Origin: an uncultured Chloroflexia bacterium
GTDB lineage: Bacteria > Chloroflexota > Limnocylindria > QHBO01
Assembly: GCA_963814375.1 (NCBI GenBank)
Contig: CAWFCQ010000003.1
Location: forward strand, 96,001-160,000
Reading direction: 5' to 3'
Length of the DNA stretch: 64,000 nucleotides
In this document: piece after piece, positions 22,621-38,123 of the stretch
How the letters are laid out: the number at the start of each line of letters is the position of its first letter
Numbering within the stretch: position 1 is the stretch's first letter
The notes under the pieces: model-generated
Told to the model about the DNA's origin: nothing
The model's input: only the letters and a program-made list of their open reading frames with translations
Database searches by the model: none
Position numbers and translations under genes: made by a program

Positions 22621-22770
22621 TGTGGCGGGATGAGCGTGGATCGGCGCCAGGGTCCCCCTGCTAGACTGTGATCGAGGCGCCCGCCTCGTGCAGCGTCTCG
22701 CCAACGATTGACAACATCGCGGACCGCGAGGTCCGCTCAGCAATCACCGCGCGTTGCGACCGGAGTGGAG

Positions 22771-23130
22771 ATGGATCACACCGGACTGCTCTACGTCATC
22801 GGTTTCGGGTTCGCCGCGACGACGTTCGTCTTCGGGACGATCCTGTTCAGCTGGCTGATCACCCATCGGCGCCGCAGCCCTCAGAAGGGCCTCCCGTACG
22901 AGTCGGGCGTCGACACCATCGGTGACACCTGGAGCCGGTTCGGACTGGCCTTCTATCTGTACGCCCTGCTCTTCGTGGCCTTCGACGTCGAGATCATCTT
23001 CGTCTACCTGTGGGCCATCACGGTGCGGGCCATCGAGTTCCAGGGGATCGTCCTGATCGGCATCTTCCTTGCGATCTTGATGTTCGGCGAGCTGTACGCG
23101 TGGAAGAAGGGGGACCTGCGATGGCAATAG
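22771..23130 (+). CDS. nuoA: Complex I subunit A
   Basis: [35 protein letters not shown] -10 at 22662. Confidence 0.95.
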
Positions 23131-23801
23131 ACCGAACGCCTCCGAGCGGCCACACCGAACCGCCCACGTCCGGAACCGAGCTCGTCGCCAACGACGGCGG
23201 GGGGCAGATCATCATCCCCGAGGGCGCGGGCGACGCCGATCTGCTGCGCCCGTTCGGGATGGAGGAGCATCCGCAGGGCGGGTTCCACGGCCTGCTCGAG
23301 GTGATTCCGACCAAAGCCGACCTCATCCTCGACCTGATCCGGGCGAACTCGCTATGGCCGCTCCTCTCGGGCCTGTCGTGCTGCGCGATCGAGATGATGA
23401 GCACGGCCACGAGCGTCAACGACATCGACCGATTCGGCTCGTTTCCGTTCCGTGCCAGCCCGCGACAGGCCGATGTTCTGATCGTGGCGGGGACACTCAC
23501 GACCAAGATGGCCGGGCCGCTCGTGCGCCTCTGGGAGCAGATGCCCGAGCCGAAATGGGTCGTGGCGATGGGGACCTGCACGACATCCGGCGGCCGCTTC
23601 AAGCGCTCCTACTCGGTCGTCCAGGGAGTCGACCGGGTCATGCCCGTCGATGTCTACGTGCCGGGCTGCCCGCCGCGCCCGGAGGGCCTCATCTACGGGA
23701 TGATGAAGCTCCACGAGCTCGTGAAGCAGCGGCGCGGCGAATGGAGCACGTTCGTCGACCGCGGACCGCAGCGGACGCGCTGGGAAGGAGACGTTCGCTG
23801 A
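23121..23801 (+). CDS. nuoB: Complex I subunit B
   Basis: [33 protein letters not shown]. Confidence 0.96.
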
Positions 23802-24439
23802 GCACGCCCGCGACCGCAGGCTCGCTCGTCCGAACCCTCACCGAGCGCCTGGGCCCCGACGTCGGCGACCTCTGGACCGATGAGGACACCGTCGAGTTCT
23901 CGATCGACGGTGCGCGCAACCTCGAGGTCCTGGCGCAGCTGCGCGACGATCCCGACCTCGGCTTCTTCATGCTGGCCGACGAGGCTGCCGTGGACTACGG
24001 CGTCGGCGCCCACTTCGAGGTGGTGTATCACCTGTTCAGCTGGAAGCACCCCGCCTGGCTTCGCGTGCGCGCCAAGGTCGACCGCGCCGACCCGCGCATC
24101 CGCTCCGTTACCCACCTGTGGGAGGGCGCGATGTTTCACGAGCGCGAGGCCTACGACATGATGGGCATCGTGTTCGAAGGCAACCGCGACCTGCGCCGGA
24201 TCTACATGTCGCCCGACTACCGCAGCTTCCCGCAGCGTCGCGACTTCATCCTGCCCGACGACGCCGCCGACTCGCCCGCCGCCGGCGTCAATCCGCTGGA
24301 GCGACCGGAGACGTGGGACCTTGCCCGCTTCCGTGACGCGCCGGCGGTGACGTATCCACCCGCGTCCGAGCGTGAGGACGCGCCGGCCGAGCGGGTCGAG
24401 TCTGGCGAGACGCTGGCCGATCGGAGCCGGCCGCGATGA
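23798..24439 (+). CDS. nuoC: Complex I subunit C (probable CTG start)
   Basis: [31 protein letters not shown] overlaps the nuoB TGA, with AAGGAG 7 nt upstream. Confidence 0.9.
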
Positions 24440-25719
24440 CGACGACTGATCCGGAGGTCCGCATCCCGGACCCGATCGAGCTCGACCGGGCCGAGGAGGC
24501 CCGCCTGCGTGCCGCCTCCGGTTTGACGCCGCCCGTCGAGCGGCGGCCCGAGTACGCCGGCTTCGAGTCGGTCGGGATCCCGGACCGGCCGCCGCAGACG
24601 GACCGCGAGCGAGACGTCTACAGCCTCGAGGAGGGCGAGATGCTCCTCAACATGGGGCCACAGCATCCGTCCACCCACGGTGTCATGCGCCTGGTCGTGA
24701 AGGTGCGCGGCGAGGTCATCATCGACATCGACCCGGTGCTCGGCTACCTCCATCGCGGGATCGAGAAGCTGTGCGAGAACGCGACCTACACGACCGTGCT
24801 CACCTACGTCGACCCGATGGACTACCTCGGCACGATGCACAACGAACACGCCCCGGCCATCGCCTTCGAGAAGCTGTACGGCATCCGGCCGCCGAAGCGG
24901 GCCGAGTACATCCGCGCGCTGGTGGTGGAGCTGAACCGCATCTTCAGCCACGGCCTGATGATGGGCTTCCTGGCGCTCGACATGGGCGGGCTGACCCCGA
25001 TCCTCTACAGCTTCATCAACCGCGACGAGATCGTCGACATGCTGTCGGCCATCAGCGGACAGCGGATGCTCTTCAACTTCTTCCGCGTCGGCGGCGTGAA
25101 CTGGGACACCAACGACGAGTTCCTCTCGCGGCTGGGGACGTGGCGCGGCACCGTCATGAAGAACATCGAGATGAACGAGCGGATGATCACGGAGAACGAG
25201 ATCTTCACCGCCCGGACGCGCGGGATGGGCGTCCTGACCGGCGACGAGGCCATCTCGCTCGGTGTCACCGGCCCGAACCTGCGAGCGTCCGGCGTGCCGT
25301 TCGACGTGCGCAAGGCCCACCCGTACTCGATCTACCACGAGCTCGAGTTCGACGTCATCACCCACCAGACCGGCGACTCGTACGCCCGCTACCTCCAGCG
25401 CATCGCCGAGGTCAAGCAGAGCATCCACCTCATCGACCAGATCGTGGACCGCATGCCGCACGGCGCGGTGCAGGCCCAGGTGCCGGGCATCATTCGCCCC
25501 AAGCCGGGCCGCGCCTACGGCGCCGTCGAGTCGCCGCGCGGGCTCTACAGCGTCTACGCCATCAGCGATGGCGGGCCCAACCCGTATCGGTTCCGAATGC
25601 GCGACCCGTCGTTCATCAGCCTCCAGGCGCTGCCCAAGGTCATGCCAGGCAAGCTCATCGCCGACACGATGGCGGTGATGGCCAGCTTCGACCCGGTCAT
25701 GGGCGGCGTGGACAAGTAG
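24436..25719 (+). CDS. nuoD: Complex I subunit D
   Basis: NMGPQHPSTHG, GYLHRGIEK, ESPRG, DPVMGGVDK. No NiFe-binding CxxC pairs. Confidence 0.96.
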   Translation: MTTTDPEVRIPDPIELDRAEEARLRAASGLTPPVERRPEYAGFESVGIPDRPPQTDRERDVYSLEEGEMLLNMGPQHPSTHGVMRLVVKVRGEVIIDIDPVLGYLHRGIEKLCENATYTTVLTYVDPMDYLGTMHNEHAPAIAFEKLYGIRPPKRAEYIRALVVELNRIFSHGLMMGFLALDMGGLTPILYSFINRDEIVDMLSAISGQRMLFNFFRVGGVNWDTNDEFLSRLGTWRGTVMKNIEMNERMITENEIFTARTRGMGVLTGDEAISLGVTGPNLRASGVPFDVRKAHPYSIYHELEFDVITHQTGDSYARYLQRIAEVKQSIHLIDQIVDRMPHGAVQAQVPGIIRPKPGRAYGAVESPRGLYSVYAISDGGPNPYRFRMRDPSFISLQALPKVMPGKLIADTMAVMASFDPVMGGVDK

Positions 25720-25746: not shown

Positions 25747-26757
25747 ATGGACTGGGAGCTCGTCCTCGGCCTCGGGCGCTTCGTGCTTGCCACGACGCTG
25801 ATCCTGCTGCTCACCGTGCCGACCGCGTTCGTGATCATCCAGATGGAGATGAAGATCATCGCCCAGCTGGCGCTGCGCTTCGGGCCGAACCGGATCGGTC
25901 CGCGCGGCATTTTCCAGAGCACCATCCACGGCTTCAAGGTGCTCGCCAAGGAGGACACCGTCCCCGACCAGGCCGACCGGGTCGCCTTCACGATGGCCCC
26001 CTGGATGGTGTACATGGCGGCGGCGATGAGCATGCTCGTCATGCCCTTCGCGCCCGGGGCGATCGCGGCCGACATGAACATCGGCATCGTCTACTTCTTC
26101 GCCGTCCTCGGTCTCTCGGTGGTCGGCCTGCTCGTGGCCGGGTGGGCCAGCTACAACAAGTACTCGCTGCTCGGCGGGCTGCGCTCCGCGGCGCAGATGG
26201 TGAGCTACGAGATCCCGCTGACCCTGTCCATCGTCGGGGCGGTCGTCCTGGCCGGGACCCTCAGCTTCAGCGAGCTCATCGCCTGGCAGCTGGAGCACGG
26301 CTGGCTGCTCTGGTGGCAGCCGGTCGGCCTCGCCATCTTCTACGTCGCCAGCCTGGCCGAGATCAACCGCACTCCGTTCGACATGGTCGAGGCCGACAGC
26401 GAGCTGGTGGCGGGCCCGTTCACCGAGTACTCCGGGATGCGCTTCGGCTTCTTCTTCTTCGCTGAGTACGTCGCGCTGTTCATCATGAGCGGCATCCTCA
26501 TCAGCCTCTTCTTCGGCGGCTGGCTGGCGCCGTGGCCATTTCCGGCCCAGCTGGGCGGGTTCGCCGGGACGCTGTACGGCATCTTTTGGTTCTTCCTCAA
26601 GACCTACATCTTCGTGGCGATCGCGGTCTGGCTGCGCGGCACCCTGCCCCGCGTCCGGGTCGACCAGCTGATGGGCATGGCCTGGAAGGTCCTGCTGCCG
26701 CTGGCGCTCATCAACCTGTTCGTCACGGCCATCGCGGTCGTCGTCTTCGAGCTGTAG
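25747..26757 (+). CDS. nuoH: Complex I subunit H
   Basis: GPNRIG, KYSLLGGLRSAAQMVSYE, NRTPFD...EADSELVAG, PRVRVDQLM. Confidence 0.96.
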   Translation: MDWELVLGLGRFVLATTLILLLTVPTAFVIIQMEMKIIAQLALRFGPNRIGPRGIFQSTIHGFKVLAKEDTVPDQADRVAFTMAPWMVYMAAAMSMLVMPFAPGAIAADMNIGIVYFFAVLGLSVVGLLVAGWASYNKYSLLGGLRSAAQMVSYEIPLTLSIVGAVVLAGTLSFSELIAWQLEHGWLLWWQPVGLAIFYVASLAEINRTPFDMVEADSELVAGPFTEYSGMRFGFFFFAEYVALFIMSGILISLFFGGWLAPWPFPAQLGGFAGTLYGIFWFFLKTYIFVAIAVWLRGTLPRVRVDQLMGMAWKVLLPLALINLFVTAIAVVVFEL

Positions 26758-26769
26758 GAGGACGGACCG

Positions 26770-27609
26770 ATGGCGTTCCCCGGTGCCGGCATCGCCAAGG
26801 GCATGGCCACGACATTCCGCAACTTCTTCGCGCCCAAGGTGACGCGCCAGTACCCCGAGGAGCGGCCCCAGATCCCCGATCGCTGGCGCGGTCGGCTCGA
26901 CCTGATCTACGACCCCTTCGGCGAGCACAAGTGCGAGGTCTGCTTCCAGTGCGCGCAGGTCTGCCCGGTCGAGGCCATCGACATGAGCGGATTCGACTCG
27001 ACCGGGAACCGGATCCGATACGGCCTGCCCGAGATCTACGACGAGCGCAAGGACGCCAACGCCTACCGCCGAGCGGGTCTGCCGGCTCGGCCGATGCGCA
27101 ACGCCGCGCGCTGGGATGAGGCCGTCGACACGCCGTGGGTCGACGAGACGATCGACGCCTTCGGCGGCCGATCCGAGGCTCTGGTCGCGATCTTCCGGGC
27201 CGTCCAGGATCGCTACGGCTACCTGCCCGAGCATGCGCTGCGTCGGATCAGCGATCGGCTGACGATCCACTGGGCACAGGTCTTCGGCGCCGCCGGGCTG
27301 GGCGGCTTCCGCCTGCTCCCGGCCGGCGGCCACGTCATCACCGTGTGTGACTGTGCCGCCTGCCGCTTCGCGGGCGGCAGCGCGGTCCTGGCGGCGGTCG
27401 AGAGCGAGCTCGGCATCCGGGCGGGCGAGGAGACCCCGGACGGGACCTTCAGCCTGGAGCGCGGCACCGATGTCGGCGCGGGCTCGCTGAGCCCGGCGAT
27501 CCGCATCGACACCCTCGTATTCGGGCCGGTCGACGCCGCCAAGGCTCGGCACATCGTCGGAGAGCGCCGCGCCACCGCAGCGCGCCCTGCGAGCGGGGCC
27601 GTCAGCTGA
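26770..27609 (+). CDS. Fusion of the NuoI N-terminal half with a degenerate NuoE-like domain
   Basis: TRQYPEE...RWRG...CEVCFQCAQVCPVEAI carries only one ferredoxin motif. NuoE part: VQDRYGYLP, VCDCAAC, TPDGTFSL; the second CxxxC reads DVGAG. Confidence 0.85.
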   Translation: MAFPGAGIAKGMATTFRNFFAPKVTRQYPEERPQIPDRWRGRLDLIYDPFGEHKCEVCFQCAQVCPVEAIDMSGFDSTGNRIRYGLPEIYDERKDANAYRRAGLPARPMRNAARWDEAVDTPWVDETIDAFGGRSEALVAIFRAVQDRYGYLPEHALRRISDRLTIHWAQVFGAAGLGGFRLLPAGGHVITVCDCAACRFAGGSAVLAAVESELGIRAGEETPDGTFSLERGTDVGAGSLSPAIRIDTLVFGPVDAAKARHIVGERRATAARPASGAVS

Positions 27610-28961
27610 TGGCCAGCACGATCTCCCCCCAGATCAGCATTCTGCCCGGCGGCGAGCACCGCCTGCTGACCGACATCGGTCGGGTCGACCCTACGAGCCT
27701 CGCCAGCTATCGCGAGCGCGGCGGGTACGGCGGCCTCGAGCGTGCGGTCACACGCCTCGCTCCAGAGGAGGTCATCGGTGAAATCGAGGCAGCCGGGCTA
27801 CGCGGCCGCGGAGGCTCCGGCTACTCGACCGGCGCGAAGTGGCGCGTCGCGCGGGAGGCGCCCGGCGACCGCACGATCGTCGTCGCCAACCTCATGGGCG
27901 CGGATCCGAGCGCCCTCGGCGATCGGGCCCTGGCCGAGGGCAATCCGCACCTGGTCGTCGAGGGCGCGCTGATCGCCGCCTATGCCGTCGGAGCAACCGA
28001 GGCGATCATCGCCGTCCGCCGCGACTGGACCGATGCGATCGCGCGGCTCCGGGCCGCCGCGGCCGAGGCGACCGAGGCGCACCTGGCCGGCTACCTCGTG
28101 CTTGGCACCGACACGAGCATCCAGCTCAGCGTGTGGGAAGGGTCCGGGGCGTACGTCGCGGGAGAGGAGACAGCGCTGCTGAACGCCCTGGCCGGCGACC
28201 GCGGCATGCCGGCCATTCGTCCGCCGTATCCGGCCACGCGCGGCCTGGGAGACGCACCGACCGTCGTCCAGAACGGCGAGACCCTGGCGCATGTCGCGTG
28301 GATCCTGTCGCACTCGGCGGAGGCGTTCGCATCGGTCGGCAGCGCGGCCAGCCGGGGCACGAAGCTGGTCACGGTCATGGGGCGGGTCGGCGAGCCCGGC
28401 CTGGTCGAGGTCCCGCTGGGCACCTCGCTGCTCGACATCGTAACCCTCGCCGGCGGCGGCACCGGCGCGAGCAAGGCGGCCTTCGTGGGCGGGCCGGGCG
28501 GTGGCGCGATCGAGTCCGGCGCGTTCAGCGGCACGCCATACGACTACGAGGCGCTCGAGGCCGCCGGCGCGATCATCGGCTCGGGCGCCGTCCTCGTGGT
28601 GGATGCGGCAACCTGCATGGTCGACAGCGCTCGATTCTTCGTCGACTTCAGCGCCCGAGAGGCGTGCGGCAAGGCCGTCCCGTGCCGCATCGGTACCAAG
28701 CGCCTGGTCGAGGGGCTCGACCGCATCCTGGCCGGGACGCCCCGACCGAACGACTTCAATCTTCTCCGCGAGCTCTCGCGCAAGATGAGCGACACGGCGC
28801 TGTGCAAGCTCGAGCGCCTGGCGCCGGGACCGATCCTCACGACGCTCGATCGGTTCGGCGACGAGTACCGGGCGCATGCCGAGCGCGGCGAGTGCCTGGC
28901 CGGCGCCTGCGCCACCGGCGGGCTGCCGCCCCTCATCTCCCCGTTGGCCGGGCTAGAGTAG
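27609..28961 (+). CDS. nuoF: NuoF/HydB-like flavoprotein subunit with degenerate motifs
   Basis: GLRGRGGSGY, GAYVAGEETAL, PPYPA, NGETL, CGKAVPCRIG, C-terminal H...CLAGAC. Confidence 0.85.
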   Translation: MASTISPQISILPGGEHRLLTDIGRVDPTSLASYRERGGYGGLERAVTRLAPEEVIGEIEAAGLRGRGGSGYSTGAKWRVAREAPGDRTIVVANLMGADPSALGDRALAEGNPHLVVEGALIAAYAVGATEAIIAVRRDWTDAIARLRAAAAEATEAHLAGYLVLGTDTSIQLSVWEGSGAYVAGEETALLNALAGDRGMPAIRPPYPATRGLGDAPTVVQNGETLAHVAWILSHSAEAFASVGSAASRGTKLVTVMGRVGEPGLVEVPLGTSLLDIVTLAGGGTGASKAAFVGGPGGGAIESGAFSGTPYDYEALEAAGAIIGSGAVLVVDAATCMVDSARFFVDFSAREACGKAVPCRIGTKRLVEGLDRILAGTPRPNDFNLLRELSRKMSDTALCKLERLAPGPILTTLDRFGDEYRAHAERGECLAGACATGGLPPLISPLAGLE

Positions 28962-28967
28962 GCCGCG

Positions 28968-31355
28968 ATGAGCTTCGGCACGACGAACGGCCACCCCACC
29001 AACGGCAATGGCGCCGGTGACGGCAAGGTCACCGACTACACGCCTATCTGGCCGATGGTGCCCGGGACCCGGAAGATCGCCGTCACCATCAACGGCGCCC
29101 AGGTCGAGGCCGAGGAGGGCCAGACCATCCTCCAGGCCTGCCGGGTGCTCGGCATCGAGGTCCCGACGCTGTGCTACGAGCCGAAGCTGGCGCCCTACGG
29201 GGCATGCCGCATCTGCGCGGTTGAGGTCGAGGGCCAGGACGACACGCCGATCTCGTGCGGTACCGCGATCACCGAGGGGATGGTCATCACCACCCACTCC
29301 GACCGGGTCGTCGAGAACCGTCGGATGGTGCTCGAGCTCATCTTCAGTGACCACGACGCGTACTGCCTGCCGCCCTGCCAGTTCAAGTGCCCGACCCGGG
29401 TCGACATTCCGGGCTACCTGAAGCAGAACACCCTGGGCAACTGGGAGGAGGCGACGCGCATCCTGAAGCGCTCCCTCCCGTTCCCGGCCATCCTCGGCCG
29501 CGTCTGCCCGGCGCCGTGCGAGACGCACTGCCGGCGCGAGGAAGTCGACACCGCCATCGCCATCCGCGACTCGCATCGGTACTGCGCCGACCGTGTGCTC
29601 GAAGTCGACGCTCCCGCGCCGATCCCGTGGCCGAAGGAGCCGGACACCGGGCGTCGAGTCGCGGTCATCGGCGCCGGCCCGGCCGGCATGAGCGTCGCCT
29701 ACTATCTCCAGCTGCGCGGGCACCACTGCGACGTCTTCGAGGCCGATCCTGAGCAGGGCGGCATGCTCCGCTACGGGATCCCGCAGTACCGCCTGCCGAA
29801 GGGCTGGATGGACCGCGAGCTCAACCACGTGTGGGAGCTGGGCGCGACCTTCCGCCCGAACATGCGGCTCGGGCGCGACTTCCATCTCGGCGACATCATC
29901 GACGAGTACGACGCGATCTACGTCGGCATCGGCTGCTACAAGCCGAACGAGCTCGGGATCCCGGGCGAGGAAGCCGACGGCATGGTCAACGCGTTGGAGA
30001 ACCTCTACAACTCGACGCGCGGAATTCCCGTGCCGCGGCTGAAGGGCGCGCGGGTGGTCGTCATCGGCGGGGGCTTCACGGCCATCGACTGCACGCGGAC
30101 CTCGGTGCGTCAGGGCGCCGCGGAGGTGACGCTCGTCTACCGCCGCGACCTGAAGGACATGCCCGCCGCGGACGAGGCGCACGAGGCGATCGAGGAGGGA
30201 GCGCGCCTCATCTTCCAGGCGGCGCCTACACGCATCGTCACCGACAACAAGAACAAGGTCACCGGCGTCGAGTTCCAGCGCATGAAGCTGGGCGAGCCGG
30301 ACGCCCAGGGCCGCCGCCGACCGGAGCCGATGCCGGGCACCGAGTTCATCGTCGAGTGCGACACCGTCCTCGGCGCCATCGGCCAGGGTCCGGAGCTGTC
30401 CTGGATCGAGTCGGAGCCCGACGAGCTCAAGGCCGGCCTCGAGGTCGACCGCCGCGGCAACCTCGTCAGCGAGGAGCACATCTTCCGCACCAACGTGCCG
30501 AAGATCTTCGCCTCCGGCGACGTGCGCACCGGCGCCGCCACCGTGGTGGAAGCGATCGGCGAGGGTCGCCGCGCCTCGTACGCGATGGACTACTGGCTGC
30601 GCGGCCACGACCTCGACGACCCGCAGGTGCGGCGCATCGTCACCGAGCCGCAGCCCAACTTCCTCACGATCGTGCCCTTCACCGACGACGTGAAGGAGCC
30701 GCGGGCGATCATGGGCAAGCAGGAGGCGGACGAGCGCAAGGGCAACTTCAACGAGTACGAGTTCGGCTACACCGGCGACCAGGCCATGGCCGAGGCGTCG
30801 CGCTGCCTCCAGTGCACCTGTGAGGCGATCGGCCACTGCGACCTGCGCGAGGCGGCGATCGAGTACGAGACGACGCTCAACATGGCGATCGACGAGCGCT
30901 CGATCCAGGACAACCCGTACGTCGGCGTCAACCACGGCTACGGCCGCGACGAGACCCACTCCTTCATCCTGCGCGACTACTCGCGCTGCATCGACTGCGG
31001 TCGATGCGCCCAGGTGTGCAAGGAGATCGTCGGCGCCGGCTGCTATGACTTCATCGGCAAGGGCTTCGACTCGCTGGTCACCACCGCCGACTACGTCAGC
31101 CTCAACGAGACGCCGTGCGTTTCCTGCGGCCGATGCGCGGAGACCTGCCCCGTCGGCGCCCTCATGCCGCGCCCGCGCATCCTCGAGACCTACCAGCTCG
31201 ACGTGTCGCGCTGCATCTTCTGCGGCATCTGCGCCGATGCCTGCCCGTACGACGCCCTGCGCTGCGGCCCCGAGTTCGAGTTCAGCGAGTATCAGCGCGA
31301 CCTGCCCATGCTCGACATCCTCGAGATGTCCGACCGGGAGCGACCTACCCGCTAG
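28968..31355 (+). CDS. NuoG-N/GltD (StnC/NsoC-like) FAD-NADPH Fe-S flavoprotein fused to the NuoI C-terminal half
   Basis: 2Fe-2S (PTLCY...GACRIC...SC); SDH...CLQCTC...CDL; GltD domain (PCQFKCP, GRVCPAPCE, GAGPAG, GGGFTA, YRR, GDV); 2x[4Fe-4S]; tail YQLDVSRCIFCGICADACPYDAL...EFEFSEYQR. Confidence 0.88.
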   Translation: MSFGTTNGHPTNGNGAGDGKVTDYTPIWPMVPGTRKIAVTINGAQVEAEEGQTILQACRVLGIEVPTLCYEPKLAPYGACRICAVEVEGQDDTPISCGTAITEGMVITTHSDRVVENRRMVLELIFSDHDAYCLPPCQFKCPTRVDIPGYLKQNTLGNWEEATRILKRSLPFPAILGRVCPAPCETHCRREEVDTAIAIRDSHRYCADRVLEVDAPAPIPWPKEPDTGRRVAVIGAGPAGMSVAYYLQLRGHHCDVFEADPEQGGMLRYGIPQYRLPKGWMDRELNHVWELGATFRPNMRLGRDFHLGDIIDEYDAIYVGIGCYKPNELGIPGEEADGMVNALENLYNSTRGIPVPRLKGARVVVIGGGFTAIDCTRTSVRQGAAEVTLVYRRDLKDMPAADEAHEAIEEGARLIFQAAPTRIVTDNKNKVTGVEFQRMKLGEPDAQGRRRPEPMPGTEFIVECDTVLGAIGQGPELSWIESEPDELKAGLEVDRRGNLVSEEHIFRTNVPKIFASGDVRTGAATVVEAIGEGRRASYAMDYWLRGHDLDDPQVRRIVTEPQPNFLTIVPFTDDVKEPRAIMGKQEADERKGNFNEYEFGYTGDQAMAEASRCLQCTCEAIGHCDLREAAIEYETTLNMAIDERSIQDNPYVGVNHGYGRDETHSFILRDYSRCIDCGRCAQVCKEIVGAGCYDFIGKGFDSLVTTADYVSLNETPCVSCGRCAETCPVGALMPRPRILETYQLDVSRCIFCGICADACPYDALRCGPEFEFSEYQRDLPMLDILEMSDRERPTR

Positions 31356-31555: not shown

Positions 31556-31927
31556 TCAGAACTTGTTCAGGTTGACCTGCCACTCGTCGCAGTCGCTGAC
31601 GACGGTGATGGTGTACTCGCCCTCGATCAGGTCGTTCACGAACGAGGTCGTGACGCGCTGCTGCTGCTCGTAGGTGAAGCCACCGTCGACCGAGGTGATC
31701 GAGACGACGACGTCCTCGCAGGTTGGTGCGGTGTACGAGAGGCGGTAGCGACCTGCCTGAAGCGGGAACGTCGTCCCCTCCTCGTCCTCCGACGTCGCTC
31801 TCGCGGCCTCGGGAAATTCCGAGGCGCCGTCATCGCCGCCTCCGCCACCACCACCTCCGCCGCACGCGGCGAGAAGCACGGTCAACGAAAGGAGCGCGAG
31901 CAGCGTGGTCCGTCTCAGCATCTCCAC
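31556..31927 (-). CDS. Small lipoprotein of unknown function
   Basis: AGGAGG RBS, signal peptide with lipobox LAAC, Gly linker and a beta-rich domain with two Cys. Confidence 0.8.
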   Translation of the reverse strand: MEMLRRTTLLALLSLTVLLAACGGGGGGGGGDDGASEFPEAARATSEDEEGTTFPLQAGRYRLSYTAPTCEDVVVSITSVDGGFTYEQQQRVTTSFVNDLIEGEYTITVVSDCDEWQVNLNKF

Positions 31928-32109
31928 GGGTCCTCCTACCCTCCAGAGCTCGGGGTTGGTCCGTTACGGGGAACCGCTTTGCTGTTGTGTGCGCGCTACC
32001 TTAGGCGAGCCCTCGACCGCCGCGCAATGGATTCGGCCGCTACGCTAGAATCGAGCGCGGCCCAGGATCGGGCCGCGAACGCTCGAACCTTCCTGTGGGA
32101 GCCACGGCC

Positions 32110-32619
32110 CTGGACATCTCCAGCGTTCTTTTTTACCTGCTCGCGATCGGCGTCGTGGGCGCCGGGCTCGCGGTGGTCACGCTGCGCAACATCATCCACT
32201 CGGCCGTGGCGATGATGGTCTGCTTCGGTTCACTGGCTGGCATGTACGCCCTCCTGGGTGCTCCGATCGTGGCTGCCGCGCAGGTGCTCATCTACCTCGG
32301 CGCGATCAGCGTCCTGATCCTCTTCGCCATCATGCTCACCCAGGCGGGCGACGCGAACCTGCCCGCGCCGTTCCACCGACAGCTGCCGATCGCGGTCGTG
32401 GTCGCCCTTGCGGTCACCGGCCTGGTCGGATGGGCGGTGGTCCAGACCGACTGGCAGATGGCCGCCGAGGTCACCGGCGCCGCGGTCGAGGCCATTGCGA
32501 CGGCTGTCTTCACGACCTATGCGCTGCCGTTCGAGATCATCAGCCTGCTTCTCCTCGTCGCGATCATCGGTGCCATCTTCCTGGCGCGCCGCCCGGAAGA
32601 GGACGAGCGCGCGAACTGA
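32110..32619 (+). CDS. nuoJ: Complex I subunit J (CTG 32110 or GTG 32095 start)
   Basis: NIIHSAV, AQVLIYLGAISVL, PFEIISLLLLVAIIGA. Own -10 TAGAAT at 32046. Confidence 0.93.
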   Translation: MDISSVLFYLLAIGVVGAGLAVVTLRNIIHSAVAMMVCFGSLAGMYALLGAPIVAAAQVLIYLGAISVLILFAIMLTQAGDANLPAPFHRQLPIAVVVALAVTGLVGWAVVQTDWQMAAEVTGAAVEAIATAVFTTYALPFEIISLLLLVAIIGAIFLARRPEEDERAN

Positions 32620-32622
32620 CCG

Positions 32623-32928
32623 ATGGGGATCCAGGGCTATCTCATCGTCTCGGCGCTGCTGTTCGGCATCGGCGCGTTCGGGTTCATGGTGCGCCGCAAC
32701 GCGATCCTCATGCTCATCAGCATCGAGCTCATGTTCAACGCGGTGAACCTGAGCCTCGTGGCCTTCAACGCCTATCTCCCGCCCGATGCGAATGCCGGCG
32801 CCGTCTTCGCGCTCATGATCATGGCCGTCGCCGCCGCCGAGGTGACGGTCGGGCTGGCCCTCGTGATCGCGATCATCCGTACGCGCCAGACGGCCGAGGT
32901 CGACCAGTACGCCGATCTGAAGGAGTAG
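32623..32928 (+). CDS. nuoK: Complex I subunit K
   Basis: RRNAI..LISIELMFNAVN, VAAAEVTVGLA. Confidence 0.96.
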   Translation: MGIQGYLIVSALLFGIGAFGFMVRRNAILMLISIELMFNAVNLSLVAFNAYLPPDANAGAVFALMIMAVAAAEVTVGLALVIAIIRTRQTAEVDQYADLKE

Positions 32929-32932
32929 CCCG

Positions 32933-35131
32933 ATGCCCATCGAGCTGCTGATCGCCCTCATTCCGGCGCTGCCCCTCGCCGGGTTCCTGTTCGCCGTGCT
33001 CGTCGGGCCGCGCATCGACCGCGTCCCGTCCCACGGTCACGACGAGCATCACGACGACGGCCACGCGAGCCACGATGATCACGGGCCGATCGACGACTCG
33101 AGCTTCCGCGGCATCCCGACCGAGGAGGAGCAGGCGGCGACCAGCCCGCACGCCGGGCACGCCGACGATCTCGCCAATGCCGAGGGCGCCGCCGGCGTCA
33201 TTCCCGCCGACATGAACGACGGCCTCGGGCAGGCCGGGCACGTGACCCCGGGCGGCCCGAAGCCTCGCTACCTGTCGTGGATCGTGCCGACCGGCCTGGT
33301 CGGGATCGGCTGGGTCATCAGCATGATCGTCGTCGCCGACGTGATCTTCGGCGGCAACGAGTACGAGGTGACGCTCTACGAGTGGATCGCATCGGGCGAC
33401 TTCCACGTCGAGATCAGCTTCCTCGTTGACAGCCTCACGGCGATGCTCCTGCTGGTCGTGAGCACGGTCGGGTTCCTCGTGCACGTCTACAGCATCGGCT
33501 ACATGGACGGCGACCGCGGGTTCTGGCGCTTCTTCGCCTACCTCAACCTGTTCATGTTCTCGATGCTGCTCCTCATCCTGGGCGACAACTTCCTGATGCT
33601 GTACGTCGGCTGGGAGGCGGTCGGCCTGTGCAGCTACGCGCTCATCGGCTTCTGGTACAAGAAGCCGTCGGCGGCGGGAGCCGCCAAGAAGGCGTTCGTC
33701 GTCAACCGCATCGGCGACCTGGGCTTCGGCCTGGGCGTGATGATGATCTGGGTCAACCTCGGCACGCTGAGCTTCCACGAGGTTTTCGAGACCATCGGCA
33801 CGCTCGACGAGGGCACGGTGACGGTCATCGCCCTCCTGCTCTTCGCCGGCGCCGTGGGCAAGTCAGCCCAGTTTCCGCTCCACGTCTGGCTGCCGGATGC
33901 CATGGAAGGGCCGACCCCCGTCAGCGCCCTCATCCACGCCGCGACGATGGTCAACGCCGGCGTGTACATGGTCGCTCGCGCCAACCCGATCTTCGCCGAG
34001 GCGCCGACCGCGATGCTGACCGTCGCCACCATCGGCGCATTCACCGCCATCTTCGCCGCGGCCATCGCACTGACCCAGAACGACATCAAGAAGGTCCTCG
34101 CCTACAGCACCGTCAGCCAGCTGGCCTACATGTTCCTGGCGCTCGGTGTCGGAGCCTGGGTCTCGGCCATCTTCCACCTCGTCAGCCACGGCTTCTTCAA
34201 GGGCCTGCTGTTCATGGGCTCCGGCTCCGTCATCCACGGGGCCGGCGGCGAGCAGGACATGCGGTACATGGGCAACCTGCGGGCGAGGATGCGCTGGACC
34301 TACGTGACGATGGTCATCGGCTCGCTGGCCCTGGCCGGCATCCCGCTCTTCGCCGGCTTCTTCAGCAAGGACGAGATCCTGGCCGAGACCTTCAACCGCG
34401 GCTACTACGTCTTCTACCTGATCGGCGTGATCGTGGCCTTCATGACCGCCTTCTACACGTTCCGGATGATCTTCATGACGTTCTGGGGTGAGTGGCGCGG
34501 GCCGGCCGCGATCTGGGAGCACGTCCACGAGAGCGCGGTGACCATGGTCGCGCCGCTCGTGCTCCTGTCGGTGCCCACGATCTTCGCCGGGCTTCTGCTG
34601 GGCATCCCGCCGGAGGGCGGCGTCATCCACACCTGGCTGGAGGAGGTCTTCCACGCTTCGGAGGAGGCCGGAGCGGGCATCCAGCCGGGCTCGATCGCAG
34701 CGACGAGCCACGAGGGGTTCCAGCTCCTCGGCTTCGGCGGCCTGCTGCTCGGCAGCGGCGCGCTGGTGGCGGCGCTCGGCGTCTGGCTGGCCTATCGCTG
34801 GTACGTCCGTGATCCCGAGGCGCCGGCCCGCTTCGTCGAGCGCTTCCCAGCCGGGCTCGGCCCGGGGATGTATCGGGCCAGCGTCAACAAGTACTACGTC
34901 GACGACATTTACGGGCTCGTGTTTGCCCGTGGCGGCGTCCTGCTGGCCGAGGCGCTGTGGTGGTTCGACGCGAGGATCATCGACGGCATCGTGAACGGCG
35001 CCGGCTGGCTGGCCTCGACCATCGGTGGTGGCCTGCGCAAGGTCCAGACCGGACGGGTCGAGAACTACGGGCTCGGCATCGCGGCCGGGCTGGCCGTGGT
35101 GCTCCTCGCCTACGCGACGGTGGTGCGCTGA
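32933..35131 (+). CDS. nuoL: Complex I subunit L with a His/acidic insertion after TM1
   Basis: YSIGYM, GWEAVGLCSY, NRIGD, GKSAQFPLHVWLPDAMEGPTPVSALIHAATMV, AYSTVSQ. Confidence 0.96.
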   Translation: MPIELLIALIPALPLAGFLFAVLVGPRIDRVPSHGHDEHHDDGHASHDDHGPIDDSSFRGIPTEEEQAATSPHAGHADDLANAEGAAGVIPADMNDGLGQAGHVTPGGPKPRYLSWIVPTGLVGIGWVISMIVVADVIFGGNEYEVTLYEWIASGDFHVEISFLVDSLTAMLLLVVSTVGFLVHVYSIGYMDGDRGFWRFFAYLNLFMFSMLLLILGDNFLMLYVGWEAVGLCSYALIGFWYKKPSAAGAAKKAFVVNRIGDLGFGLGVMMIWVNLGTLSFHEVFETIGTLDEGTVTVIALLLFAGAVGKSAQFPLHVWLPDAMEGPTPVSALIHAATMVNAGVYMVARANPIFAEAPTAMLTVATIGAFTAIFAAAIALTQNDIKKVLAYSTVSQLAYMFLALGVGAWVSAIFHLVSHGFFKGLLFMGSGSVIHGAGGEQDMRYMGNLRARMRWTYVTMVIGSLALAGIPLFAGFFSKDEILAETFNRGYYVFYLIGVIVAFMTAFYTFRMIFMTFWGEWRGPAAIWEHVHESAVTMVAPLVLLSVPTIFAGLLLGIPPEGGVIHTWLEEVFHASEEAGAGIQPGSIAATSHEGFQLLGFGGLLLGSGALVAALGVWLAYRWYVRDPEAPARFVERFPAGLGPGMYRASVNKYYVDDIYGLVFARGGVLLAEALWWFDARIIDGIVNGAGWLASTIGGGLRKVQTGRVENYGLGIAAGLAVVLLAYATVVR

Positions 35132-36651
35132 TGGACGGCGTCCCCCTGCTCACCCTGATCGTCTTCATGCCCGCACTCGGCGCGCTCCTCCTGCTGTTCG
35201 TGCCGGCCGACAACCATCGCGCCATCCGATGGATCGCCCTCGCCACGGCGCTGCTCACCTTTGCGCTCAGCCTGGTCCTGCTCGGCTACAACCCCGACGG
35301 CAGCGAGTTCCAGTTCCGCGAGGACCTCGAGTGGATCGACTTCTTCGGCATGCGCTACACGCTCGGCGTGGACGGCATCAGCGTCGTGCTGGTGATCCTG
35401 ACCACGCTGCTGAGCGTCGTGGCCATCCGCTACAGCTGGGAGCCGATCCAGACGAAGGTGCGGGCCTACTACGCCACGATGCTGGTGCTGATGGTCGGCA
35501 TGCTCGGCGTGTTCGTCGCCCTCGACCTCTTCCTCTTCTACGTCTTCTGGGAAGTCAGCCTCTTCCCGATGTACTTCGTCATCGGCGTCTGGGGCGGCCC
35601 GCGTCGCATCTACGCCACGGTGAAGTTCGTCATCTACACCCTGGTCGGCTCGCTGCTCATGCTCGTCGCCATCCTGGCCGTGGCGATCGCGTACGCATCG
35701 GCCGGCAACCCGTTCACCTTCAGCTACGAGGCGCTCCGCGGCTTCGCCTACGCCGATTCGCTCCAGGCCGTCGCATTCATCGCCTTCTTCCTCGCCTTCG
35801 CCATCAAGGTGCCGATGTGGCCGCTCCACACCTGGCTGCCCGATGCGCACGTCGAGGCCCCCACCGCCGGCTCGATCATCCTGGCTGGCGTGCTGCTCAA
35901 GCTCGGCGGCTACGGCTTCCTGCGCTACAACCTGCCGCTCCTGCCCGATGCCGCCGTGACCTTCGCGCCGATCATCATCGGGTTGAGCATCATCGCCATC
36001 ATCTACGGCGGCCTGGTGGCGATGGTGCAGCCCGACATGAAGAAGCTGGTGGCGTACTCGAGCGTGAGCCACATGGGCTTCGTCATGCTCGGCGCGTTCG
36101 TCTTCAACACCCAGGGCCTCCAGGGCGCCGTCTACCAGATGATCAGCCACGGCATCACGACCGGTGCGCTGTTCCTGCTGGTGGGCATCATCTACGAGCA
36201 GACCCACGATCGCGAGATCTCGCACATGGGCGGCCTCAACGCCCGGCTGCCCCACTACGCGGCCATGTTCGGCCTCTTCACCTTCGCCAGCATCGGGCTG
36301 CCTGGGCTGTCGGGGTTCATCGGCGAGTTCCTCGTCATCTTGGGCGCCTTCGAGTCGAACGGCTTCGTGGCGGCGGCGGCGATGGTGGTGGTCATCATCA
36401 GCGCGGTCTACATGCTGTGGATGTTCCAGCGCGTCTTCTTCACTGTGCCATCCGATTGGATGCGCCGATGGTGGCCGTCGCTGCGCGACATGAGCAGCGG
36501 CGAGTGGCAGTCGCTCGCGCCGCTGGTGGTGCTGGTCGTGGCGCTGGGGGTCTATCCCGGACCGATCCTCGAGATCATCAGCGCGCCGGTCGAGCGAATC
36601 ATCGAGGCGGTCAACGGCGCCGGGCTCACCGGCCTCGGGCCGCTGTGGTGA
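35131..36651 (+). CDS. nuoM: Complex I subunit M
   Basis: DLFLFYVFWE, IKVPMWPLHTWLPDAHVEAPT, AYSSVSHMG, GLPGLSGFIGE. Confidence 0.96.
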   Translation: MDGVPLLTLIVFMPALGALLLLFVPADNHRAIRWIALATALLTFALSLVLLGYNPDGSEFQFREDLEWIDFFGMRYTLGVDGISVVLVILTTLLSVVAIRYSWEPIQTKVRAYYATMLVLMVGMLGVFVALDLFLFYVFWEVSLFPMYFVIGVWGGPRRIYATVKFVIYTLVGSLLMLVAILAVAIAYASAGNPFTFSYEALRGFAYADSLQAVAFIAFFLAFAIKVPMWPLHTWLPDAHVEAPTAGSIILAGVLLKLGGYGFLRYNLPLLPDAAVTFAPIIIGLSIIAIIYGGLVAMVQPDMKKLVAYSSVSHMGFVMLGAFVFNTQGLQGAVYQMISHGITTGALFLLVGIIYEQTHDREISHMGGLNARLPHYAAMFGLFTFASIGLPGLSGFIGEFLVILGAFESNGFVAAAAMVVVIISAVYMLWMFQRVFFTVPSDWMRRWWPSLRDMSSGEWQSLAPLVVLVVALGVYPGPILEIISAPVERIIEAVNGAGLTGLGPLW

Positions 36652-36662
36652 GGGGCTGACGG

Positions 36663-38123
36663 ATGGACATGGTCGACGACCTCGTCACTCTCCTGCCGGA
36701 GCTGATCCTGACGGTGCTCGTCCTCGTCATCATCACCACGGACCTCTTCATCTCGCGCGCGAACAAGTGGCTGCTGACCCCGCTCACCGTGGCCGGCCTC
36801 ATCCTGGCCGGGGCGGCGTGCTTCGTGGTGTGGGACGTCAACGAGACGGTGTACGGCGGCTTCTACGTCGTCGACGACCTGTCGGTGTTCCTGAAGGGCG
36901 CCACCATCCTGATCGGCATCCTCTCCGCCCTCTTCGCGCCGGCCTACCTCCTCGTCCGACGCATCCCGCTCGGCGAGTTCAACACGATCCTGGTGACCGC
37001 GCTCATCGGCATGTGCGTGCTGGCCTCGAGCAGCGACTTCATCACCCTCTTCCTGGGCCTCGAGCTGATGACGATGCCGTCCTACCTGCTGACCGGGCTC
37101 CACAAGACCGACCGATACAGCAACGAGGGCGGGCTCAAGTACTTCCTGCTCGGCAGCTTCGCCAGCGCCATCCTCCTGTTCGGCGTAGCCTGGATGTACG
37201 GCCTCACCGGCACCACGAACATCGGCGCCATCGCGGCGTCGCTCGACGGCCAGATGAGCGCCGGCATCCTGGTGGCGGTCGGGTTCCTGACCGTGGGCGC
37301 GACCTTCAAGATCGCGGCGGTGCCGTTCCACTACTGGACGCCGGACGCCTACCAGGGCGCCCCGACACCCATCACCGGATTCCTCTCGGTCGGCCCCAAG
37401 CTCGGCGCCTTCGCGCTCGTGATCCGGATCTTCGTCGAGGCCCTGGCCCCGTTGCGGACCGATTGGCTGGCGGTGTTCCTGGTCCTGACGGTGCTGACCA
37501 TGACGATCGGCAACGTGGTGGCGCTGACGCAGACCAACGTCAAGCGGATGCTGGCCTACTCGAGCATCGCCCACACCGGCTACATCATGGCCGGCCTCGC
37601 CGCGTACGCGAACGCGACCGATCCGGAGGCCGCGGCCCAGGGCATCCAGGCGGTCCTCTTCTACCTCCTCGCCTACGCGGTCATGAACATCGCGGCCTTC
37701 GCGATGGTGGCGATGCTCCAGCGCGACACGGGCCGCTTCGGTGGGCTCAACTCCTTCGCCGGCCTCGCCTCGCGCGCCCCGTGGCACGCCGCCGCGATGA
37801 CCGTGCTGCTGCTGAGCCTGACCGGAATTCCCCCTACCGTCGGCTTCTTCGCGAAGCTCCTCATCCTGCTCGCCACGGTCGAGTCCGGGCTCATCTGGCT
37901 GGCGGTCGTCGTCGCGCTCAACGCGGCGCTGGCGGCGTTCTACTACCTGCGCGTCGTGGTCTACATGTACATGCGCGATCCCGAGCCGGAGCCCGCTCCG
38001 ATCGACACCAACCCGTTCGGCTCGGTGGCCCTGGCCGTCTCGGTGGCCGGCGTGATCGCGCTCGGGATCTTCCCGGGAGCCATCCTGCGCCTGGTCGAGG
38101 TCTCTGCGGCCAGTATCTTCTAG
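36663..38123 (+). CDS. nuoN: Complex I subunit N
   Basis: EGGLKYF, FKIAAVPFHYWTPDAYQGAP, KRMLAYSSIAH, GIPPTVGF. Confidence 0.96.
   Translation: MDMVDDLVTLLPELILTVLVLVIITTDLFISRANKWLLTPLTVAGLILAGAACFVVWDVNETVYGGFYVVDDLSVFLKGATILIGILSALFAPAYLLVRRIPLGEFNTILVTALIGMCVLASSSDFITLFLGLELMTMPSYLLTGLHKTDRYSNEGGLKYFLLGSFASAILLFGVAWMYGLTGTTNIGAIAASLDGQMSAGILVAVGFLTVGATFKIAAVPFHYWTPDAYQGAPTPITGFLSVGPKLGAFALVIRIFVEALAPLRTDWLAVFLVLTVLTMTIGNVVALTQTNVKRMLAYSSIAHTGYIMAGLAAYANATDPEAAAQGIQAVLFYLLAYAVMNIAAFAMVAMLQRDTGRFGGLNSFAGLASRAPWHAAAMTVLLLSLTGIPPTVGFFAKLLILLATVESGLIWLAVVVALNAALAAFYYLRVVVYMYMRDPEPEPAPIDTNPFGSVALAVSVAGVIALGIFPGAILRLVEVSAASIF

Follow-up and report, generated by a model that had tools for sequence, protein, structure and literature searches.

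P0001 and a nuoI gene in two parts

The window considered here is a stretch of 64,000 nucleotides (positions 96,001 to 160,000 of contig CAWFCQ010000003.1, assembly GCA_963814375.1; coordinates below are those of the stretch unless stated otherwise) from a bacterium of Candidatus Limnocylindria, a class of Chloroflexota. It contains an operon for respiratory complex I in which the position of NuoG is occupied by a flavoprotein, P0001. The source is a metagenome-assembled genome of 2.52 Mb in 8 contigs, 89% complete; the guanine plus cytosine content of the window is ~70%, and the operon is encoded on the + strand. By Pfam and NCBIfam assignment the gene order is nuoA-B-C-D-H-[I_N::E]-F-[G'::I_C]-(gap)-J-K-L-M-N, in which [I_N::E] encodes a second fusion protein, P0002, and [G'::I_C] encodes P0001. 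The three genes that precede the gap, with their domains and the supporting matches (E, expectation value), are the following.

26770-27609, + strand: I_N::E gene, encoding P0002 (279 amino acids), with the N-terminal half of NuoI, a linker and a NuoE-like domain
26770..27024, + strand: NuoI N-terminal half, P0002 residues 1-85 (TIGR01971 positions 1-70 of 121, E 1.4e-15)
27136..27564, + strand: NuoE/HydC/NfnC-type thioredoxin-like domain, P0002 residues ~123-265 (Pfam 2Fe-2S_thioredx, E 3e-25)
27609..28961, + strand: NuoF-like flavin mononucleotide (FMN) subunit of BfuB type, 450 amino acids (PDB bit scores, alignment)
28968..31355, + strand: P0001, 795 amino acids, an NfnA/StnC-like iron-sulfur flavoprotein ending in the C-terminal half of NuoI (Pfam, PDB, NCBIfam)
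29070..29300, + strand: [2Fe-2S] domain of N1b/A1 type, residues 35-111, C69/C80/C83/C97 (Pfam Fer2_4, E 2.3e-19)
29352..29531, + strand: H129-x3-C133-x3-C137-x3-C141-P, K167 and C180-x3-C184-x3-C188 (Pfam Fer4_20; alignment to 9bov_A and 8oh5_C)
29649..30602, + strand: GltD/NfnL-type Rossmann domains for flavin adenine dinucleotide (FAD) and NADPH, residues 228-545 (Pfam Pyr_redox_2, 230-533, E 3.2e-28)
30804..30839, + strand: C613-x2-C616-x-C618-x5-C624, where the NuoG-type fold resumes after the GltD insertion (translation, PDB alignment, conservation)
30966..31163, + strand: HydA/NuoG-type ferredoxin-like domain, motifs C674-C684 and C717-C727, A2/A4 type (Pfam Fer4_Nqo3, Fer4_7, Fer4_21)
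31176..31301, + strand: NuoI C-terminal half, residues 737-778, C749/C752/C755/C759-P followed by GPEFEF (TIGR01971 positions 71-112 of 121, E 1.2e-14)

P0001 extends from the ATG at 28968 to the stop at 31355, directly after the nuoF homologue. An earlier note on this DNA had assigned the NuoG position to a GltD/StnC-type flavoprotein, and this assignment holds: the [2Fe-2S] domain and an intact GltD-type FAD/NADPH domain are both present, and every motif quoted is found in the translation (S127-D128-H129; C613-L-Q-C616-T-C618...C624-D-L, the CLQCTC...CDL motif of residues 613-626; GAGPAG, 235-240; GGGFTA, 367-372; VYRR, 390-393). Residues 35-759 align in a PDB search with NfnA of Caldicellulosiruptor saccharolyticus (9bov_A, E 1.5e-167; colinear, over 9bov_A residues 2-699), residues 36-760 with StnC of Sporomusa ovata (8oh5_C, E 1.7e-152), the match that the note had proposed, and residues 36-740 with NfnA of Thermococcus sibiricus (9n5u_A, E 4.6e-141). 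Chance cannot account for matches of this strength. Free-standing NfnB/GltD proteins match residues 134-547 only, and NuoG/HydA proteins only 35-137 and 655-758. The similarity to Thermococcus NsoC, likewise proposed in the note, is one stated in PMC10482914.

The likeness to NfnA/StnC comprises the succession of [2Fe-2S] domain, His-x3-Cys motif, GltD/NfnL-type insertion with a putative Lys-ligated cluster, CxxCxC...C return and ferredoxin-like dicluster, as well as partner genes of NfnB and NfnC type. The difference lies at the C terminus: alignment to the NfnA/StnC chains of 1172-1178 amino acids stops near residue 700, and P0001, ~420 residues shorter, carries a NuoI half instead of the domain resembling formate dehydrogenase (Fdh) and other molybdopterin enzymes. 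That the molybdopterin fold is missing had been recognised earlier and agrees with the Pfam search, which gave no PF00384 or PF01568 match in P0001.

With NuoG (Nqo3, the 75-kDa subunit) P0001 shares the [2Fe-2S] domain (E ~1e-19 to 1e-24, residues 35-137), an N4-type ferredoxin-like domain and a gene position after nuoF. It differs in scoring 98.5 bits against TIGR01973, for which the cut-off is 470; in having the His-ligated cluster motif interrupted after C133 by ~480 residues of GltD domain; and in possessing a second ferredoxin-like cluster and no molybdopterin-like domain. The inserted part resembles GltD, NfnB (NfnL) and the N-terminal part of dihydropyrimidine dehydrogenase in its FAD/NADPH Rossmann domains and two 4Fe-4S clusters (E 3e-89 to 2e-31, residues 134-547; 3e-89 to 2e-69 for the NfnB/GltD entries of the PDB), proteins that are free-standing or otherwise fused and lack NuoG- or NuoI-type parts. 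By these comparisons P0001 is a strict member of none of the NfnA/StnC, NuoG and NuoI families, and its domains are all known.

The Fer4_20 match covers residues 134-212 (E 1.6e-19) with profile positions 29-110 only. By homology, the ligands from H129 to C188 and those from C613 to C624 would bind three [4Fe-4S] clusters, of types A3, A6 and A7 in the A1-A7 scheme used in the available part of PMC11829005. K167 aligns with a Lys of 9bov_A and 8oh5_C, and excerpts of PMC10482914 and PMC11829005 give Lys as a ligand of the FAD-adjacent cluster (K170 in StnC; A7 in NfnA). Pfam Fer4 dicluster domains lie at residues 667-765, where the ferredoxin-like domain also aligns to 9bov_A. The iron-sulfur Cys (those of the [2Fe-2S] domain included), H129 and K167 do not vary among 17 sequences from four families, nor do the GxGxxG motif and Y391-R392-R393, and homologues at 47-61% identity retain all iron-sulfur ligands, H129, K167, the FAD motif, YRR and the NuoI half. 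GAGPAG, GGGFTA and YRR are identical in the NADPH-using proteins 9bov_A, 8oh5_C and 9n5u_A; the Arg pair that follows the second beta-strand (YRR) presumably binds the 2'-phosphate of NADPH. P0001 is the most constrained large gene, with a median ratio of nonsynonymous to synonymous substitution rates (dN/dS) of 0.13 and a dN of 0.048 (pairwise comparisons with 14-16 relatives per gene, here and below).

The CLQC motif of P0001 is followed by three CxxCxxCxxxC motifs (C674-C684, C717-C727 and C749-C759), one more than had been counted before, and the third belongs to the NuoI C-terminal half, which also matches PRK05888 positions 59-128 of 180. The complementary N-terminal half, with the first CxxCxxCxxxCP motif, lies on P0002, fused in frame to NuoE through a linker of ~40 residues; N-terminal halves of NuoI/TYKY structures in the PDB cover P0002 residues 8-77 (for example 7awt_I residues 24-82, E 2.5e-11). 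The two halves abut exactly at TIGR01971 positions 70/71, each scoring below the cut-off of 113 bits alone (57 and 54 bits), and ~4.2 kb of other coding sequence separates them. All eight NuoI Cys, C55, C58, C61 and C65 of P0002 and C749, C752, C755 and C759 of P0001, are invariant across the class. As in NuoI (Nqo9, TYKY, NDUFS8), both motifs and their flanks are conserved and the location is between nuoH and nuoJ, but the canonical protein is a single polypeptide of ~120-180 amino acids. A search of the whole genome (89% complete) found no intact nuoI, and in the related loci examined none was found besides the split one. Outside the window, at 40904-41146 of contig C3, weak matches to NuoI models fall in an open frame of 666-703 amino acids with 4Fe-4S motifs, which is a different iron-sulfur protein.

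In P0001 the NuoI half begins ~20 residues past the A4-type motif, a place that corresponds in sequence to the A5 motif. The possibility that the last Cys motif is a remnant of the NfnA A5 cluster was rejected, as NuoI models match through GPEFEF and the N-terminal half is complemented exactly at 70/71. An assembly artefact was rejected as well, given the same order in 33 of 33 independent long loci, some of them on contigs of >1 Mb.

The respiratory complex I core, A, B, C, D, H, J, K, L, M and N, is present, with NuoI in split form only. Since NuoB carries the tandem-Cys N2 motifs, NuoD the His/Tyr motifs of the quinone site, and all membrane subunits are encoded, the complex is, by its sequence, a genuine quinone-reducing complex I. 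The gene order around the split looks like that of an 11-subunit complex I into whose nuoI a three-gene cassette has been inserted.

Occurrence in Candidatus Limnocylindria and beyond

A search for related loci returned 80, nearly all titled Chloroflexota or Candidatus Limnocylindria. Every one of the 33 that exceed 20 kb shows the same gene order, as do loci from two further families; in some long-read assemblies the high-scoring segment pairs are broken in a manner resembling frameshift errors. Sequencing runs listed for this DNA number 24, of which 19 are on record as RNA, and hold 6-11% of the sampled words; they bear on neither expression nor habitat. The design was counted in a phylum sample of 401 Chloroflexota genomes, 46 of them in the class, in which four families are labelled f1-f4, and 355 outside it (a set that includes six flagged as unpublished). 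With P0002 as query, matches that cover the NuoI half as well as the NuoE domain were obtained in 44 of the 46 class genomes (f1, 17/17 with the source genome included; f2, 23/23; f3, 4/4), and the I_N::E fusion was found in 0 of the 355 Chloroflexota genomes outside the class.

In the two f4 genomes (G325 and G317; loci L094 and L095) five genes stand together as nuoB-nuoD-[I_N::E remnant]-nuoF-[G'::I_C], with phosphatase and transglutaminase-like genes on either side; one NuoD only occurs per genome, and NuoH is encoded on a different contig. When these clusters are counted, the design is present in 46 of 46 sampled class genomes. The f4 arrangement is also the one point in favour of a quite different explanation, according to which the NuoI pieces are relics and the product of the three genes is a soluble Nfn-like enzyme, placed by chance in a nuo operon, with complex I independent of it: in f4 the module is held apart from the genes of the membrane subunits. 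This is the least credible of the alternatives, since complex I needs N6a/N6b and no second NuoI was found beside the split one in the source genome or the loci examined, while the eight NuoI Cys do not vary and the f4 module still adjoins nuoB and nuoD.

A search for distant homologues, covering 1.84 billion representatives, recovered full-span I_N::NuoE fusions at 30-38% identity (P0135, P0146, P0149, P0162, P0165 and P0176), and the split-NuoI design may extend beyond the class and be older than it. A further protein, P0296 (1473 amino acids), joins a BfuB-type flavoprotein with N-terminal thioredoxin-like and C-terminal 2x[4Fe-4S] domains to an NfnA-like part. It ends in a NuoI C-terminal half (TIGR01971 positions 70-115, E 6e-22), with YRG in place of the YRR of P0001 and DEA in place of the GEE of NuoF, and may represent a complex-I-linked form that retains the ferredoxin site. 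Seven loci of 87-93% identity (L020, L022, L036, L061, L066, L068 and L087) are filed under other taxa, their titles naming Dormiibacterota, Angelobacter, Binatia, Steroidobacteraceae, Pleomorphomonadaceae and Zixiibacteriota. A spread of the design to other phyla was not concluded from these loci, which at such identity are taken as probable binning errors.

The NuoE-like and NuoF-like partners and the candidate NADPH input

The earlier note had envisaged a swap of NuoG alone. Judged by PDB bit scores, the replacement is broader: the NuoF-like subunit scores 408 bits against 9bov_B and 396 against both 8oh5_B and 9n5u_B, compared with 350-388 for HydB and at most 271 for genuine complex I NuoF, and the NuoE part of P0002 finds its best PDB matches in HydC, NfnC and StnA. 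All three cassette proteins are closest to Nfn-type members of the Bfu family, forming a three-gene module nested in a split nuoI. The NuoF homologue aligns to residues 106-524 only of the 584-residue NfnB/StnB, so that two domains are absent, the thioredoxin-like one at the N terminus and the 2x[4Fe-4S] one (B3/B4) at the C terminus; this is the difference of the partner protein from NfnB. The glycine-rich FMN loop and the GEE motif are retained.

With moderate confidence, we favour the reading that this is a split-nuoI complex I bearing an input module derived from Nfn/Stn, an NAD(P)H:quinone oxidoreductase with two donor sites, one for NADPH at FAD and one for NADH at FMN. An 11-subunit core (NuoA, B, C, D, H, I, J, K, L, M and N) would have acquired a three-gene cassette of NfnABC/StnABC type (Bfu family) inside nuoI, and the two NuoI halves would reassemble into one 2x[4Fe-4S] domain that clamps the module onto NuoB/NuoD. 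In a two-cluster ferredoxin fold each cluster is bound by three Cys of one motif and one of the other. Because each cluster draws Cys from both motifs, the NuoI halves would have to pair to bind either. Excerpts of PMC11829005 place the N-terminal domain of NfnC within a cleft that NfnA's Fdh-like domain and NfnB create, and the chain ends that bear the NuoI halves would therefore have been neighbours in the ancestral complex. The reassembled NuoI would then occupy the place of the lost Fdh-like domain, which mediates tetramer formation in both Stn and Nfn according to the parts of PMC10482914 and PMC11829005 available. The location of the genes inside a complex I operon is a further difference from NfnA/StnC. 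A soluble, tetrameric and ferredoxin-dependent bifurcating enzyme is not expected.

The electron route, like the assembly of the halves, the donor specificities and the direction of flow, we infer by homology. In canonical complex I, NuoI receives electrons from the His-ligated cluster N5. In the present complex, unlike the canonical one, the His-ligated cluster would face the GltD domain, and electrons would likely leave for NuoI via the A4 branch rather than from the His-ligated cluster. NADPH would reduce FAD, and electrons would pass through A7 (three Cys and Lys167), A6 and A3 (His129-type) to A2; those from NADH would reach A2 through FMN, B1/N3 and the 2Fe-2S cluster. From A2 they would continue via A4 and the split NuoI (N6a/N6b) to N2 in NuoB and to quinone, with proton pumping by NuoH/L/M/N. 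The corresponding path in NfnABC of C. saccharolyticus, as excerpted from PMC11829005, is FAD-A7-A6-A3-A2-A1-B1-FMN, with A4/A5 forming an unused branch into the Fdh-like domain. For Stn, the available text of PMC10482914 describes an FAD that is non-bifurcating and oxidises NADPH, and a first StnC cluster that is Lys-ligated. The C-terminal B3/B4 domain of BfuB is the site of ferredoxin reduction in both sources, as far as excerpted; as the parts for bifurcation to ferredoxin are missing here, a plain NAD(P)H:quinone oxidoreductase is to be expected.

Several observations weigh against this reading. The stretch of NuoF that is canonically NADEGDPG reads NLMGADPS in this genome and NGYEADPG or NAYDADPA in other families, and its middle N3/B1 Cys is Ala in f1 and Thr in f2 and f3, the canonical residue persisting only in f4. 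The NuoE cluster has lost its second Cys pair, with D...G standing in place of CxxxC in P0002. Together these changes mean that the binding of FMN or NADH could be impaired. NuoE and NuoF also evolve faster than P0001 (dN 0.11-0.13 versus 0.05), and 7 of the 27 fused matches in f2/f3 contain one or two in-frame TGA codons. An open reading frame (ORF) on the opposite strand breaks the operon after P0001, so that nuoJ-N need not be co-transcribed with the module. A single-chain AlphaFold2 model of P0001, made from an alignment of 17 rows, is poor, with a mean predicted local distance difference test score (pLDDT) of 59 and values of <50 for residues 560-795; only the GltD domain is modelled with confidence. 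Prediction of P0001 residues 655-795 together with P0002 residues 1-100 scored 0.36, the best of 3 controls scoring 0.00, with runs sharing at least 85% of contacts and a partner pLDDT of at least 64. Of 80 solved complexes 58 attain the mark for a pass, as do 2 of 110 mismatched pairs, and among those passing at a score of 0.60 or less are only 7 of the 80 solved complexes and both mismatches. The result gives weak support to a pairing of the NuoI halves and is counted on the opposing side too; because NuoI is solved, the pass may reflect likeness to known structures.

The ligand changes themselves can be viewed in another light. In f1-f3 a Glu replaces the usual Gly three residues past the fourth N3 Cys, while f4 keeps both the Cys and the Gly; the first Cys of the lost NuoE pair has become Asp in f1 and His in f2 and f3, and the first motif has gained a Cys (CxCxxC). 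Since the distant fusions P0146, P0149, P0165 and P0176 keep the canonical CxxxxC...CxxxC, the NuoE changes are derived. Median dN/dS is 0.19 for both nuoF and I_N::E, which are under purifying selection, compared with 0.18 for nuoD and 0.23 for nuoN. Because these values lie within the nuoD/nuoN range, the changes in the NuoF and NuoE clusters are read as ligand replacement rather than decay, and NADH oxidation at FMN appears likely, not certain.

The same evidence bears on the alternative that survives best, although we consider it unlikely: a complex I that accepts NADPH only, in which NuoF and its FMN site are structural or regulatory and all electrons enter at the GltD-type FAD. Such an enzyme would explain why the D-E of NADEGDPG, one N3 Cys of NuoF and two of the four cluster Cys of NuoE could be dispensed with, why the f4 NuoE domain is truncated and free of Cys, and why, among the large parts of the module, conservation is highest in the NADPH/FAD domain, with its low dN and invariant motifs. 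It accounts less well for the persistence in NuoF of the FMN loop and GEE motif under a dN/dS on a par with that of nuoD, for the Asp/His and extra Cys of NuoE, or for the Glu near N3 wherever the Cys is lost (f1-f3), which looks like ligand replacement at a cluster whose only known role is the link to FMN. Of the earlier proposal that this complex I is fed by NADPH, then, NADPH input stands as a reasonable reading, but NADPH as only donor is not supported; it is probably a second donor rather than the sole one, because the NuoF homologue keeps the FMN loop, the GEE motif and purifying selection.

An improbable alternative is that the complex runs mainly in reverse, the proton-motive force driving electrons from quinol to NADP+ (and NAD+) to provide NADPH for biosynthesis. 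Complex I is reversible, and the FAD site of Stn/Nfn, when these enzymes work in their physiological direction, reduces NADP+, according to the portion of PMC10482914 available. The genome, however, encodes PntB, of a membrane transhydrogenase that already makes NADPH from NADH, and this is its sole complex I, which should therefore also serve forward respiration. NADPH production by reverse electron transport, also raised in the earlier note, is thus conceivable but not indicated.

It is more improbable still that the module bifurcates or confurcates as its Nfn/Stn ancestors do, with complex I replacing one acceptor. The minimal Bfu site [B1-FMN-C1], as described in excerpts of PMC11829005, is present in outline, and the related P0296 combines the C-terminal ferredoxin domain of BfuB with a NuoI half; in the present module, however, the B3/B4 ferredoxin-site domain and the N-terminal domain are absent, the B1 and C1 ligands are altered, and no part for ferredoxin docking is evident.

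Beyond the favoured reading of an Nfn/Stn-derived module with two donor sites, a more general scheme can be put forward tentatively, as something we regard as doubtful: the complex might represent a second, independently evolved means of connecting an NAD(P)H dehydrogenase to the complex I core, and a NuoG-type iron-sulfur junction might use three arms at once, an FMN/NADH arm, an FAD/NADPH arm and the metal-site arm, the last of which leads to a catalytic metal site in hydrogenases and formate dehydrogenases and would here lead to the two-chain NuoI. The enzyme would then be a natural proton-pumping NADPH:quinone oxidoreductase, possibly NADPH-specific in vivo, and NADPH, the more reducing pool, could drive respiration in an abundant soil and freshwater class.

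Place among known systems and the rest of the operon

Complex I is usually described with one NADH-input module (NuoEFG), docked via the His-ligated cluster of NuoG on an intact NuoI. A whole class, common in soil and freshwater metagenomes, appears instead to have swapped this module for that of a soluble bifurcating transhydrogenase, attached differently, by a NuoI split between two fusion proteins. If the favoured reading is true, this would be a natural NADPH-accepting, proton-pumping complex I, of a kind otherwise known, as far as we are aware, only from engineered forms of the E. coli enzyme. It would also provide a natural split of a two-cluster ferredoxin fold over two polypeptides, and would show clearly how modular evolution has connected Bfu enzymes with respiratory complexes.

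A precedent is offered by the Mbx-like operons of Thermotoga and some proteobacteria, in which a GltD-related flavoprotein is described as replacing NuoI (PMC4758237). The likeness is that a GltD-type NAD(P)H flavoprotein sits on a complex-I-like membrane module; the difference is that NuoI is here kept but split, with NuoE/NuoF-type subunits present. The full-text literature searched contained no description of a split NuoI or of a complex-I-integrated Nfn/Stn module, although the supplementary phylogenies of PMC12018979 and PMC10482914 could include such sequences. In present annotations, genes of P0001 type go under 'formate dehydrogenase major subunit', 'glutamate synthase beta subunit-like' and also 'FAD-dependent oxidoreductase', and those of I_N::E type under 'NADH-quinone oxidoreductase subunit E'. 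A consequence for annotation is that nuoI would be scored as missing in such genomes.

The remaining genes of the operon, and the small ORF that interrupts it, are as follows.

22708..23130, + strand: nuoA (Pfam Oxidored_q4, E 1.6e-29)
23118..23801, + strand: nuoB (Pfam Oxidored_q6, E 8.3e-29); N2 cluster motifs CC...C...CP in the translation; start approximate, the first Met inside a longer GTG ORF from 23010
23800..24439, + strand: nuoC (Pfam Complex1_30kDa, E 6.3e-35, ORF residues 184-301); start approximate, within the ORF 23354-24439
24436..25719, + strand: nuoD (Pfam Complex1_49kDa, E 6.7e-84); quinone-site motifs QHPSTHG and GYLHRG
25747..26757, + strand: nuoH (Pfam NADHdh, E 1e-106)
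31556..31927, - strand: small ORF of 123 amino acids, separating G'::I_C from nuoJ; not a component of the complex
32095..32619, + strand: nuoJ (Pfam Oxidored_q3, E 1.1e-34)
32623..32928, + strand: nuoK (NCBIfam NuoK, E 1.3e-31)
32933..35131 (ORF limits), + strand: nuoL (Pfam Proton_antipo_M, Proton_antipo_N)
34957..36651 (ORF limits; true start probably later), + strand: nuoM (TIGR01972, E 2.1e-183)
36663..38123, + strand: nuoN (Pfam Proton_antipo_M, E 6.5e-73)

The NuoD translation contains no NiFe cysteines, and this NuoD is the only one detected in the search of the 89%-complete genome. In the nuoL ORF the first Pfam domain is preceded by ~100-150 residues, and matches to relatives in other families start only at residue 108; the N-terminal stretch is either an extension or the product of an over-long ORF call. 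The 123-residue protein encoded at 31556-31927 begins with a hydrophobic N terminus followed by a Cys and a run of Gly, resembling a lipoprotein, and has a homologue at the same position in 4 of the 33 related loci. Across these loci the distance from G'::I_C to nuoJ ranges from ~70 nt to 4.7 kb; the junction is therefore an insertion hot spot, and nuoJ-N may form a transcription unit of their own. Directly after nuoN, at 38128-39645 (+ strand), lies a gene for a family-20 glycosyltransferase of trehalose-6-phosphate synthase type (Pfam E 2.4e-100), which holds the same position in 22 of the 33 related loci.

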